Position numbers and translations under genes: made by a program. A stretch of 64,000 nucleotides of DNA, taken from IMG/VR virus record IMGVR_UViG_3300042935_001404; one strand, 5' to 3'. Origin of the DNA: a virus. Lineage: Duplodnaviria > Caudoviricetes. Below, piece by piece: positions 49,650-51,538 of the stretch (positions are counted from its first letter, which is position 1; each line of letters opens with the position of its first letter). A model generated the notes under the pieces. It was not told the origin of the DNA. It did no database searches and saw only the letters and a list, made by a program, of their open reading frames with translations.

Positions 49650-50270
49650 ATGAAAAATTACTACGTTTACAAATATCTAAGAGAGGACGGTACTCCTTAT
49701 TATGTGGGCAAGGGCAAAGGAAACAGAGCATATCTAAACGGTCGTTCTACACCTAAGCCACCTCAACTCGACCGGATCCATCTTATCAAAGAAAATTTAA
49801 CCGAGGAAGAGGCATTTGCACTAGAGTGTAAGTTGATTGCAGAGTATGGCCGTAAGGATCTAGGAACCGGCGTATTGCGTAACCTCACAGATGGTGGTGA
49901 GGGCGTATCTGGTAGAATAGCCAACCCCGAGTCTATCAAAAAACGTGTGGTTAAAAATACAGGTAAAAAACGCACACTAGAGCAAAAGAAACGCATGAGC
50001 CAGTCCCAGTTGGTTAGAAAACAAAAATCAAAAGAAGAACAGCAAGTGATATCAGAAAAAATATCTGCGAATCGCAAAGGTAAAGGTACCGCTCCTAAAT
50101 CCAAAGAGCATAAAGATAAATTATCTCAACTCAATAAAGGAAAGTCTCCTGGCAAGAGATCCGAAGAAACCAAACAAAAAATGCGCAAGCCAAAATCAGA
50201 AGCACACCGCAAAGCTATATCAGATGGACGCAAAGCAAAATATGCTGCTCTTAAGGCACAACAATGCTGA
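49650..50270 (+). CDS. Free-standing homing endonuclease (GIY-YIG-like with NUMOD3 repeats)
   Basis: YYVYKYLREDGTPYYVGKG, LRNLTDGGEG; KSKEHKDKLS, RSEETKQKM and KSEAHRKAIS repeats. Confidence 0.8.
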   Translation: MKNYYVYKYLREDGTPYYVGKGKGNRAYLNGRSTPKPPQLDRIHLIKENLTEEEAFALECKLIAEYGRKDLGTGVLRNLTDGGEGVSGRIANPESIKKRVVKNTGKKRTLEQKKRMSQSQLVRKQKSKEEQQVISEKISANRKGKGTAPKSKEHKDKLSQLNKGKSPGKRSEETKQKMRKPKSEAHRKAISDGRKAKYAALKAQQC

Positions 50271-50770
50271 ACATAGATCAAGTCAAACAAGATATTGAAC
50301 AGTGGATTGTGAACTTTGTAGAAGTTCCACATCCTGCACTGGGCGGCTTTCCGCCCTGTCCTTACGCACGGTCAGCACGATTGAAACGCAGTTACGAAGT
50401 GTTTGTTGGATCAGACCCATACTTCGATCTCAAGAACAGAGCCAGGTACGGCATGGGCAACAAGGAAGTAATTATCTATGCGTATGATCCTACAGAATGG
50501 CCACGTGAACTGTTTGCATCTAGCTTGGATCAGGCCAATCAAGAATTTCTATTAGATGCAGATATGTTGGTGTTGGAAGATCACCCTGCTGACCCAGAAA
50601 TAGTCAACGGCGTTTCAATGAATCAAGGCACCTATGCACTAGCACTGGCACAAAGTCTTGGCGATCTCAACACCAAAGCACAGCAAATGGCGTCAAACGG
50701 TTTTTACGATGCGTGGCCCGAGGACTATCTCACAGCACTGTTCCAGCACAGGAAAGATCCCAGACTATGA
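50264..50770 (+). CDS. Hypothetical protein (weak DUF1415-like resemblance)
   Basis: QWIVNFVE...PPCPYA and LEDHP motifs; coupled to the next gene by ATGA. Confidence 0.5.
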   Translation: MLNIDQVKQDIEQWIVNFVEVPHPALGGFPPCPYARSARLKRSYEVFVGSDPYFDLKNRARYGMGNKEVIIYAYDPTEWPRELFASSLDQANQEFLLDADMLVLEDHPADPEIVNGVSMNQGTYALALAQSLGDLNTKAQQMASNGFYDAWPEDYLTALFQHRKDPRL

Positions 50771-51198
50771 CTTACCAGTTTGCACGTATCAATCTAGAAA
50801 AAACAACATATCAACCCCGAGTAGATTGGTTCTACATTACCGAACCCAACATTGCTGAACTGCAAGATATCTACCGAACCTATTGCATCTACAAGCACTT
50901 TAGCAGTGTGATGCCGTTGTTTGACAGCCAGTTCACAGAGCCTGGAATGGAGCTCATTGGCTACAGAGACAGCAACGAATTAGTAGCGTTTTCCATGATG
51001 AAACGTTACGACGACAAGAATTTATTAGCCGCACAATTTGCTTGGAACTATCGTCAACCCCGACTGCGTTTGGGAATTTCAAGTTTACAAACAGAGTGTG
51101 CAATTTACAGAGAGCGAGGATTTGAGTACTTGTACTTGGATCAAGCGCATTTGTACAAACAAGACCTTGAAGGTTTTGAAATACTAGGACCACTATAA
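50767..51198 (+). CDS. ATE/Bpt C-terminal-like (GNAT-fold) aminoacyl-transferase domain
   Basis: ELVAF...LLAAQFAWNY...LRLGISSL...RERGFEYLYLD...YK...FEIL parallels the LVAV...LSAVY..D...SLG..S....GL.YLYLG....YK..F.P.E.L pattern of ATE_C. Confidence 0.5.
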   Translation: MTYQFARINLEKTTYQPRVDWFYITEPNIAELQDIYRTYCIYKHFSSVMPLFDSQFTEPGMELIGYRDSNELVAFSMMKRYDDKNLLAAQFAWNYRQPRLRLGISSLQTECAIYRERGFEYLYLDQAHLYKQDLEGFEILGPL

Positions 51199-51199
51199 C

Positions 51200-51538
51200 A
51201 TGGCAGATTTATACACAATTTGGGCAGACAAAGAAGGCGACATCTCAGACTTGGATTGGGTTAACGGAATGAAAAGTTTCTTTGATCATTTGAAATTTGA
51301 AGGTAAAATGGAAGACTATCGTATTACTCGTTGTAAAATGGGTTTCCGTAGCATTGCTGACATGCCCGAATGGATGATACTAATGGAGTTCCGAGACATG
51401 GCTCAAATGGATGAAGCATTTCGACGTGTTGCACCACTTGAAGGAGAGCTAGAAGCCAAACACAAGTCATTCAATCAATTTGTGTCGGGAACAATACAAC
51501 ATGCATTGTTTCGTGATTGGCCAGATACGTTTGTATGA
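51200..51538 (+). CDS. Hypothetical protein (dimeric alpha/beta-barrel-like)
   Basis: 112 aa; YRITRCKMGF...PEWMILMEF..MAQMDEAF...H pattern. Confidence 0.5.
   Translation: MADLYTIWADKEGDISDLDWVNGMKSFFDHLKFEGKMEDYRITRCKMGFRSIADMPEWMILMEFRDMAQMDEAFRRVAPLEGELEAKHKSFNQFVSGTIQHALFRDWPDTFV

Follow-up and report, generated by a model that had tools for sequence, protein, structure and literature searches.

A 64,000-nucleotide stretch of viral DNA (IMG/VR record IMGVR_UViG_3300042935_001404; Duplodnaviria, Caudoviricetes), hereafter the window, carries three small, tightly packed genes on its plus strand at positions 50264–51538, which we refer to as A, B, and C. The question raised by this locus is what a phage would do with such a trio, the middle gene of which resembles part of an aminoacyl-tRNA–protein transferase. 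An earlier interpretation based on the DNA alone (the sequence-only reading) had recognized the ATE_C pattern, without an ATE_N domain, in the middle protein and had proposed either a split or minimal system for tRNA-dependent protein tagging or a GNAT-fold enzyme acting on a small molecule. This interpretation was correct in part: B is an ATE-type transferase in minimal form, A is a protein with a thiolate-heme fold, and the trio is a real and widespread module. As to its function, our preferred explanation, which we hold at about even chances, is that the trio makes or tailors an arginine-derived or guanidino small molecule by way of aminoacyl-tRNA.

The sequence strings on which the ATE_C assignment was based (LVAF, LLAAQF, LGISSL, RGFEYLYLD, YK, and FEIL) are all present in B. 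When searched individually, B matches Pfam ATE_C (PF04377) below threshold (21.9 bits, with a cut-off of 25; E = 2.9e-4; residues 59–124) and does not match ATE_N (PF04376), and a search of NCBIfam gave no match for A, B, or C. Since a narrow profile of B gave chance matches only in the PDB, a wider profile was needed. A profile search of 1.8 billion representatives yielded 141 relatives of B that come in two sizes, namely short forms of about 145 residues and long forms of 225–270 residues, to the middle of which B aligns. The long forms pass the Pfam ATE_C cut-off (25–49 bits), and the short-form and long-form profiles match each other with an hhalign probability of 99.95% (E = 2e-37). ATE1 chains are the only PDB matches of the long-form profile (E = 5e-9), and the top five sequence matches of the short-form profile in the PDB are also all ATE1. 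In comparisons with 20 bacterial Bpt sequences, the alignment of the long-form profile spanned 189 columns and took in an ATE_N remnant that has no cysteines (E = 1e-13), whereas the short-form profile aligned with the ATE_C part only (E = 4.9e-6). In these profile alignments, the N terminus of B starts at the point where ATE_N ends. This chain from the short form through the long form to ATE1/Bpt bears out the domain assignment of the sequence-only reading and shows that B is a true but remote member of the ATE1/Bpt lineage that has been reduced to its GNAT domain.

In two independent alignments, W93, S106, E110, and Y130–K131 of B fall on W260, S273, E277, and Y303–K304 of Kluyveromyces lactis Ate1 (klAte1), residues that, with the catalytic lysine among them, bind tRNA and the arginine group (PMC9351520). 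Conservation of these residues was assessed in 191 distinct sequences, comprising 128 short and 63 long forms. E110 is invariant (128/128 and 63/63), K131 is found in 127 of the 128 short forms and in all 63 long forms, and W93 is found in all 128 short and 61 of the 63 long forms; Y130 is near-invariant, as is the occurrence of S or T at position 106. The residue pattern of B is that expected of an active enzyme, and we predict it to be one. The E277K and E277A mutations abolish the activity of K. lactis Ate1, in which E277 binds the side chain of arginine, and the leucine-transferring Bpt has a Gln at this position (PMC9351520). The conserved residues of B hint that the donated amino acid is a basic one. 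In klAte1, R80, Y25, and Y87 form the pocket that accepts Asp/Glu N termini (PMC9351520); these acceptor-recognizing residues sit in ATE_N and are hence missing from B. The predicted structure of B has a GNAT fold (predicted local distance difference test score, pLDDT, 93.7), and its best Foldseek matches are aminoacyl-tRNA-dependent enzymes, namely Sba18/Sbb17, MprF/aaPGS, and ATE1. The loop after strand 4, P-R-L-R-L-G-I-S-S, resembles the “SLG” loop of ATE enzymes as judged by eye only.

The language-model neighbors of A are DUF1415 and DUF6875 clusters, and the predicted structure of A (pLDDT 95.3) superimposes on models of these clusters with template modeling (TM) scores of 0.81–0.83, which corresponds to the sandwich fold of thiolate-heme enzymes. 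In the A family, 20 of 27 members weakly match DUF6875 (best E = 1e-4). DUF6875 received the name “cytochrome P422” in December 2025, when it was characterized as a family of thiolate-heme tryptophan hydroxylases in which the heme-ligating cysteine lies in the motif R-x-G-x-V-C-P (bioRxiv 10.64898/2025.12.11.692455). An hhalign comparison, for which the template was thin, places C32 of A on this cysteine (E = 1.2e-4), with the R, G, and V of the motif not being kept. The surrounding motif in A reads PHP-A-LG, four residues, C-P-Y, and in two true DUF6875 proteins from bacterial genomes (L188 and L190) it reads PHP-x-LG, five residues, C-P-F. The wider alignment and hhalign were needed for this comparison, since a narrow hidden Markov model (HMM) of A did not match the true DUF6875 proteins. 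The invariant residues of the family are W14, C32–P33, A35, D106–H107–P108, N120, Q130, Y148, and W151. A Foldseek search of A against the PDB returned nothing under E = 0.06, and a search of PHROGs returned families of unknown function only. The nearest solved structure to A is that of AglA, which belongs to the YqcI/YcgG heme enzymes, has a cysteine as its heme ligand, and catalyzes the N-hydroxylation of an arginine conjugate (PMC12866846). Taken together, the motif comparison and the structural model indicate that A is a probable cysteine-ligated protein of the heme oxygenase fold. Prediction of an A–B complex gave a score of 0.01, which speaks neither for nor against binding.

Distant A-like genes, with 22–28% identity, occur in HMO-2011 (50782–51291), S-PM2 (26205–26660), S-SCSM2R (57116–57514), CRP-345, and CRP-810, and such cultured marine phages could offer a culturable system for studying A. 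Chromosomal homologs of A also occur in Bdellovibrionia (for example L181:4911–5537, on a 710-kb contig). These homologs adjoin genes for an Mrp/NUBPL-type iron–sulfur carrier ATPase and a class II aminoacyl-tRNA synthetase; the neighbors are housekeeping genes, and B and C were not found nearby.

The third protein, C, is a clear member of DUF6614 (PF20319; 77.2 bits, with a cut-off of 25; E = 1.3e-21; residues 3–110). Its language-model neighbors are the small α+β barrel families DUF4286, DUF6974, and EthD, and C is probably such a barrel itself; its profile found nothing in the PDB. The invariant residues comprise a block formed by R41, T43, R44, K46, and G48–F49–R50–S51, as well as E57, H88, H101, and R105–D106. 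Druad1 (anti-Druantia) was considered as a functional lead for DUF6614 and rejected, as it is a 44-residue protein without detectable homologs.

To what extent the three genes belong together was assessed by surveying 245 viral loci, of which 165 carry a short-form B (identity to B down to approximately 40%) and 80 a long-form B. The order A-B-C was found in 123 of the 165 short-form loci, most of the others differing by an additional gene within the trio. A accompanies nearly every short-form B, and C is found with the majority of them; 37 of the 80 long-form loci also have C. Next to the long-form B, A is adjacent in 63 of 80 loci and in at least four arrangements, including opposite-strand C and A genes flanking B, B followed by A on one strand, and A upstream. 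Because the linkage is kept despite rearrangement, it provides strong evidence for a shared function. The trio is a conserved module, far beyond chance, in hundreds of aquatic phages. A search of the literature found no description of this module. In one small subgroup of long-form ATE-like proteins (P0345 and P0323), the partner is not A; these proteins pair instead with a conserved protein of 181–221 residues that belongs to no family and carries strings such as VSS..G, W-K-E, and (L/E)-N-G-N-(F/Y)-A...P-N-N-R-V. The 181-residue member of this group, encoded beside the long-form B in L192, was considered as a homolog of A, and comparison showed that it is not.

The extra genes inside the module point to a type of chemistry. 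In locus L161, a gene of 409 codons between A and B matches L-arginine:glycine amidinotransferase (E = 6e-11; phmmer search of the PDB), and a gene of 377 codons between B and C in locus L014 gives the same matches. Over all module inserts examined against L-arginine:glycine amidinotransferase, HsvA, SxtG, and StrB1, E-values ranged from 6e-11 to 4e-9. The inserts gave nothing in a Pfam search at E = 1e-3, and an initial assignment of these approximately 1.1-kb genes as homing endonucleases was wrong, as the PDB matches identify them as amidinotransferases. The genes are translationally coupled within the module and sometimes occur in two copies. An HMM built from the inserts found amidinotransferase genes, located within or next to the module, in 33 of the 165 short-form loci, at three positions, and in 7 of the 80 long-form loci, and the C-terminal catalytic motif G-x-H-C is retained in 34 of 36 insert genes. 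Amidinotransferases of the arginine type transfer the amidino group of arginine to an amine. With one or two such genes wedged into the module in many relatives, a guanidino or otherwise arginine-derived product appears most likely.

Arginine or guanidino small-molecule chemistry is thus suggested by three features in combination: the amidinotransferases, AglA as the nearest solved relative of A, and the ATE1-type Glu in B. In the scheme that we propose, which builds on the observed homologies, folds, conserved residues, and linkage, the cofactor, donor, acceptor, order of steps, and product are all putative. B would take an amino acid, probably Arg or another basic residue, from host aminoacyl-tRNA and put it on an amine or hydroxylamine acceptor rather than on a classical Asp/Glu N terminus. 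A would oxidize or hydroxylate the substrate or the product of B, and C may carry out a third step or act as a binder. The small molecule would be made during infection from host tRNA-bound amino acids, heme, and oxygen. The linkage with arginine amidinotransferases suggests production of guanidino compounds by giant phages while they infect their hosts, a capability absent from the auxiliary metabolic functions described in the literature that we searched.

Several observations weigh against this scheme. To our knowledge, all characterized ATE/Bpt enzymes act on protein N termini and not on small molecules. B is acidic (isoelectric point 5.2), which is unusual for a tRNA binder. A scores below the Pfam cut-off for DUF6875 (PF21780; 16.8 bits, with a cut-off of 24.5; E = 0.007), and the motifs R-x-(M/L)-x3-D-x2-F and M-x-G-x-F of the tryptophan-binding SBR1-3, which are present in L188 and L190, are absent from A as judged by eye; the substrate of A, and even its binding of heme, are therefore putative. 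A gene for a Fer2 ferredoxin was searched for in a complete relative genome (G001) and not found, so any redox partner would be host-supplied. No amidinotransferase gene was found when the window was searched with the amidinotransferase HMM, and the core trio must therefore be able to work without one. Finally, A-like genes also occur alone, without B or C, in cultured phages; B depends on A and not the reverse.

The alternative that survives best is that B transfers a tRNA-bound amino acid to protein N termini, creating degrons that are read by ClpS and Clp; within this alternative, A might first oxidize the N terminus. ClpS is the bacterial reader of N-degrons, and in eukaryotes, oxidation of cysteine precedes arginylation. 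That the only sequence relatives of B, ATE1 and Bpt, are protein N-terminal transferases is in line with tagging. So is the occurrence of ClpS: every one of the six near-complete short-form carriers encodes it, as do seven of nine complete carriers overall. Among GenBank phages, ClpS is a rarity (16 of 50,697 records). An unrelated 45-kb phage contig has a ClpS gene 3.5 kb from a long-form B. However, two complete carrier genomes lack ClpS, no ClpS was found within 10 kb of B in the 80 long-form loci searched, and in G001 the ClpS gene lies approximately 119 kb from the trio. Giant phages gather host-like genes, so that clade and genome size act as confounders of the co-occurrence. Moreover, the ATE_N acceptor pocket is missing from B, and a search for ATE_N in G001 found none. 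The genes that accompany B point to small molecules: the families of both partners are made up of small-molecule enzymes, and a fifth of the relatives have amidinotransferases within the module. For these reasons, of the two options offered by the sequence-only reading, we now favor the small molecule, and we consider protein tagging, to which the ClpS data lend some weight, unlikely but deserving of attention. The ClpS gene of G001 stands in a proteostasis block on one strand (L198:49–1761), together with genes for the C-terminal part of a ClpX-like ATPase, GroES, and a small heat-shock protein of the Hsp20/IbpA type.

B could also be an ordinary acyl-CoA-dependent GNAT that, together with an N-hydroxylating A, makes a hydroxamate or an N-acylated compound without tRNA. 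Hydroxamate siderophores are classically made in this way, by an N-hydroxylase working together with a GNAT acyltransferase, and relatives of B show weak matches to Acetyltransf_6. Yet sequence searches return ATE-type relatives only, the donor-pocket and catalytic residues of ATE1 are invariant in B, and the RLRLGISS loop is, by eye, unlike the Q/R-x-x-G-x-G/A pyrophosphate loop. We regard this possibility as improbable.

A further reading, which we put forward as speculative and rather improbable, is that the module performs a novel viral chemistry dependent on aminoacyl-tRNA. The heme enzyme would oxidize either a metabolite, yielding an N-hydroxy-guanidine or hydroxylamine, or a protein N terminus, and B would then arginylate the oxidized group from Arg-tRNA. 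If this were true, the outcome could be a signal or antimetabolite made by the phage, or else a degron system gated by oxygen or heme and working with a ClpS of the phage.

The suggestion of a split enzyme, in which A would be the detached ATE_N half that rebuilds Bpt/ATE1 with B, is refuted at the homology level and has hardly any probability left: although A and B are coupled in translation and nearly always neighbors, and although the PHP...PCPYA string of A does contain a P-C-P-Y that resembles the C-x-Y of ATE_N, hhalign of the A profile with 20 Bpt sequences gave a probability of 0.6% and aligned four residues (PCPY with SCSY), the fold of A is the thiolate-heme sandwich, and A still stands alongside long-form B proteins that have their own degenerate ATE_N remnant. 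Thus, of the two relationships that the sequence-only reading drew from this string, the one with DUF1415 stands and the one with ATE_N does not; likewise, the system is minimal but not split.

The coupling of the three genes was confirmed from their coordinates. A and B share a 4-nt ATGA overlap, with the ATG of B lying within CTATGA, and B and C are separated by a gap of 1 nt. The chain is longer than the sequence-only reading had described, as it extends to a GIY-YIG gene on the 5′ side (overlap with A, ATGCTGA) and to an SGNH-like gene on the 3′ side (overlap with C, ATGA). The GIY-YIG gene, which separates the baseplate-hub gene from A, is a recent mobile insertion and not part of the module, because the same insertion was found in just 1 of 80 related loci (L053). 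The SGNH-like gene has a homolog in 3 of these 80 loci. By eye, it shows G-C-S near the N terminus and D-N-I-H near the C terminus of its product; searches of Pfam, PHROGs, and NCBIfam gave no family match. In nearly all 80 related loci, A is preceded by the hub gene, which in the window has the same orientation as the trio. The label “late operon” of the sequence-only reading could not be confirmed, since no T4 late promoter (TATAAATA) was found near the trio genes, and a scan for sigma-70 promoters gave no signal above chance. The window contains head, portal, and hub genes of a T4-like myovirus, and close relatives have complete genomes of 316–364 kb with terminal repeats and come from freshwater metagenomes; the source is an uncultured giant freshwater T4-like phage. 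GenBank phages showed no DNA match to the region, and tblastn gave no match to B, long-form B, or C. The coordinates of all features are collected in Table 1.

Table 1. Positions of the trio, its surroundings in the window, and related genes at other loci
Feature	Sequence	Position	Strand	Description
Baseplate-hub gene (T4 gp26-like)	window	48570..49406	+	PHROG 150, E = 1.4e-15
GIY-YIG homing-endonuclease-like gene	window	49650..50270	+	PHROG homing endonuclease matches; outside module
Gene A	window	50264..50770	+	168 aa; “sandwich” fold of DUF6875 (cytochrome P422) and DUF1415, compact form
Gene B	window	50767..51198	+	143 aa; single ATE_C-type GNAT domain, no ATE_N
Gene C	window	51200..51538	+	112 aa; DUF6614
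SGNH-like accessory gene	window	51535..52323	+	262 aa; coupled to C; pattern by eye
Terminator-like hairpin	window	52323-52342		directly after SGNH-like gene
Amidinotransferase gene	L161	1775-3004		
Amidinotransferase gene	L161	3444-4415		
Amidinotransferase gene	L014	4435-5568		
Amidinotransferase gene	L041	2772-4004		
Partner of long-form subgroup	L192	5787-6329	-	
Partner of long-form subgroup	L196	4336-4998	+	
Partner of long-form subgroup	L270	8516-9226		
Partner of long-form subgroup	L271	2528-3178		

Comparison with known systems places each of the three proteins at some distance from its characterized relatives. C belongs to a family whose sole mention in the literature is Druad1, a weak annotation of a much shorter protein. 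A shares with the cytochromes P422 the predicted fold and the N-terminal PHP-x-LG...C-P-(F/Y) pattern, the Cys of which is the heme ligand in the P422 enzymes. It is smaller, however (168 residues, compared with 180–300), lacks the R-x-G-x-V part and the three tryptophan-binding motifs, and remains sub-threshold in Pfam. AglA and other YqcI/YcgG guanidine N-hydroxylases (PDB 9UB3) have no detectable sequence similarity to A, and A does not match PF08892. The known sandwich-fold heme oxygenases hydroxylate free tryptophan or guanidino compounds (bioRxiv 10.64898/2025.12.11.692455; PMC12866846).

The best structural matches of B, Sba18/Sbb17, FemX, and MprF/aaPGS, provide a precedent for transfer of tRNA-bound amino acids to small molecules, and VlmA places a tRNA-bound amino acid on a hydroxylamine. 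B has a single GNAT lobe, in contrast to the two lobes or additional domains of these enzymes, and the likeness is one of fold only. With ATE1 and Bpt (7WFX, 7TIF, and 8E3S), B shares the ATE_C GNAT domain and the equivalents of klAte1 W260, S273, E277, Y303, and K304. Unlike these enzymes, B lacks ATE_N, the Cys4 metal site, and the Asp/Glu acceptor pocket, is nearly always partnered with a heme-type protein, and, in the window, scores below the Pfam cut-off; its 143 residues compare with approximately 240 in Bpt and 500 in ATE1. ATE/Bpt enzymes have been known solely as two-domain protein N-terminal transferases. B is a one-domain form with intact catalytic residues that is abundant in aquatic phages and is tied to a heme-enzyme fold first described in 2025. 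If active, it would widen the chemistry of the ATE lineage, reveal a viral route for diverting host aminoacyl-tRNA, and open the way to finding out what DUF1415 and DUF6614 do.

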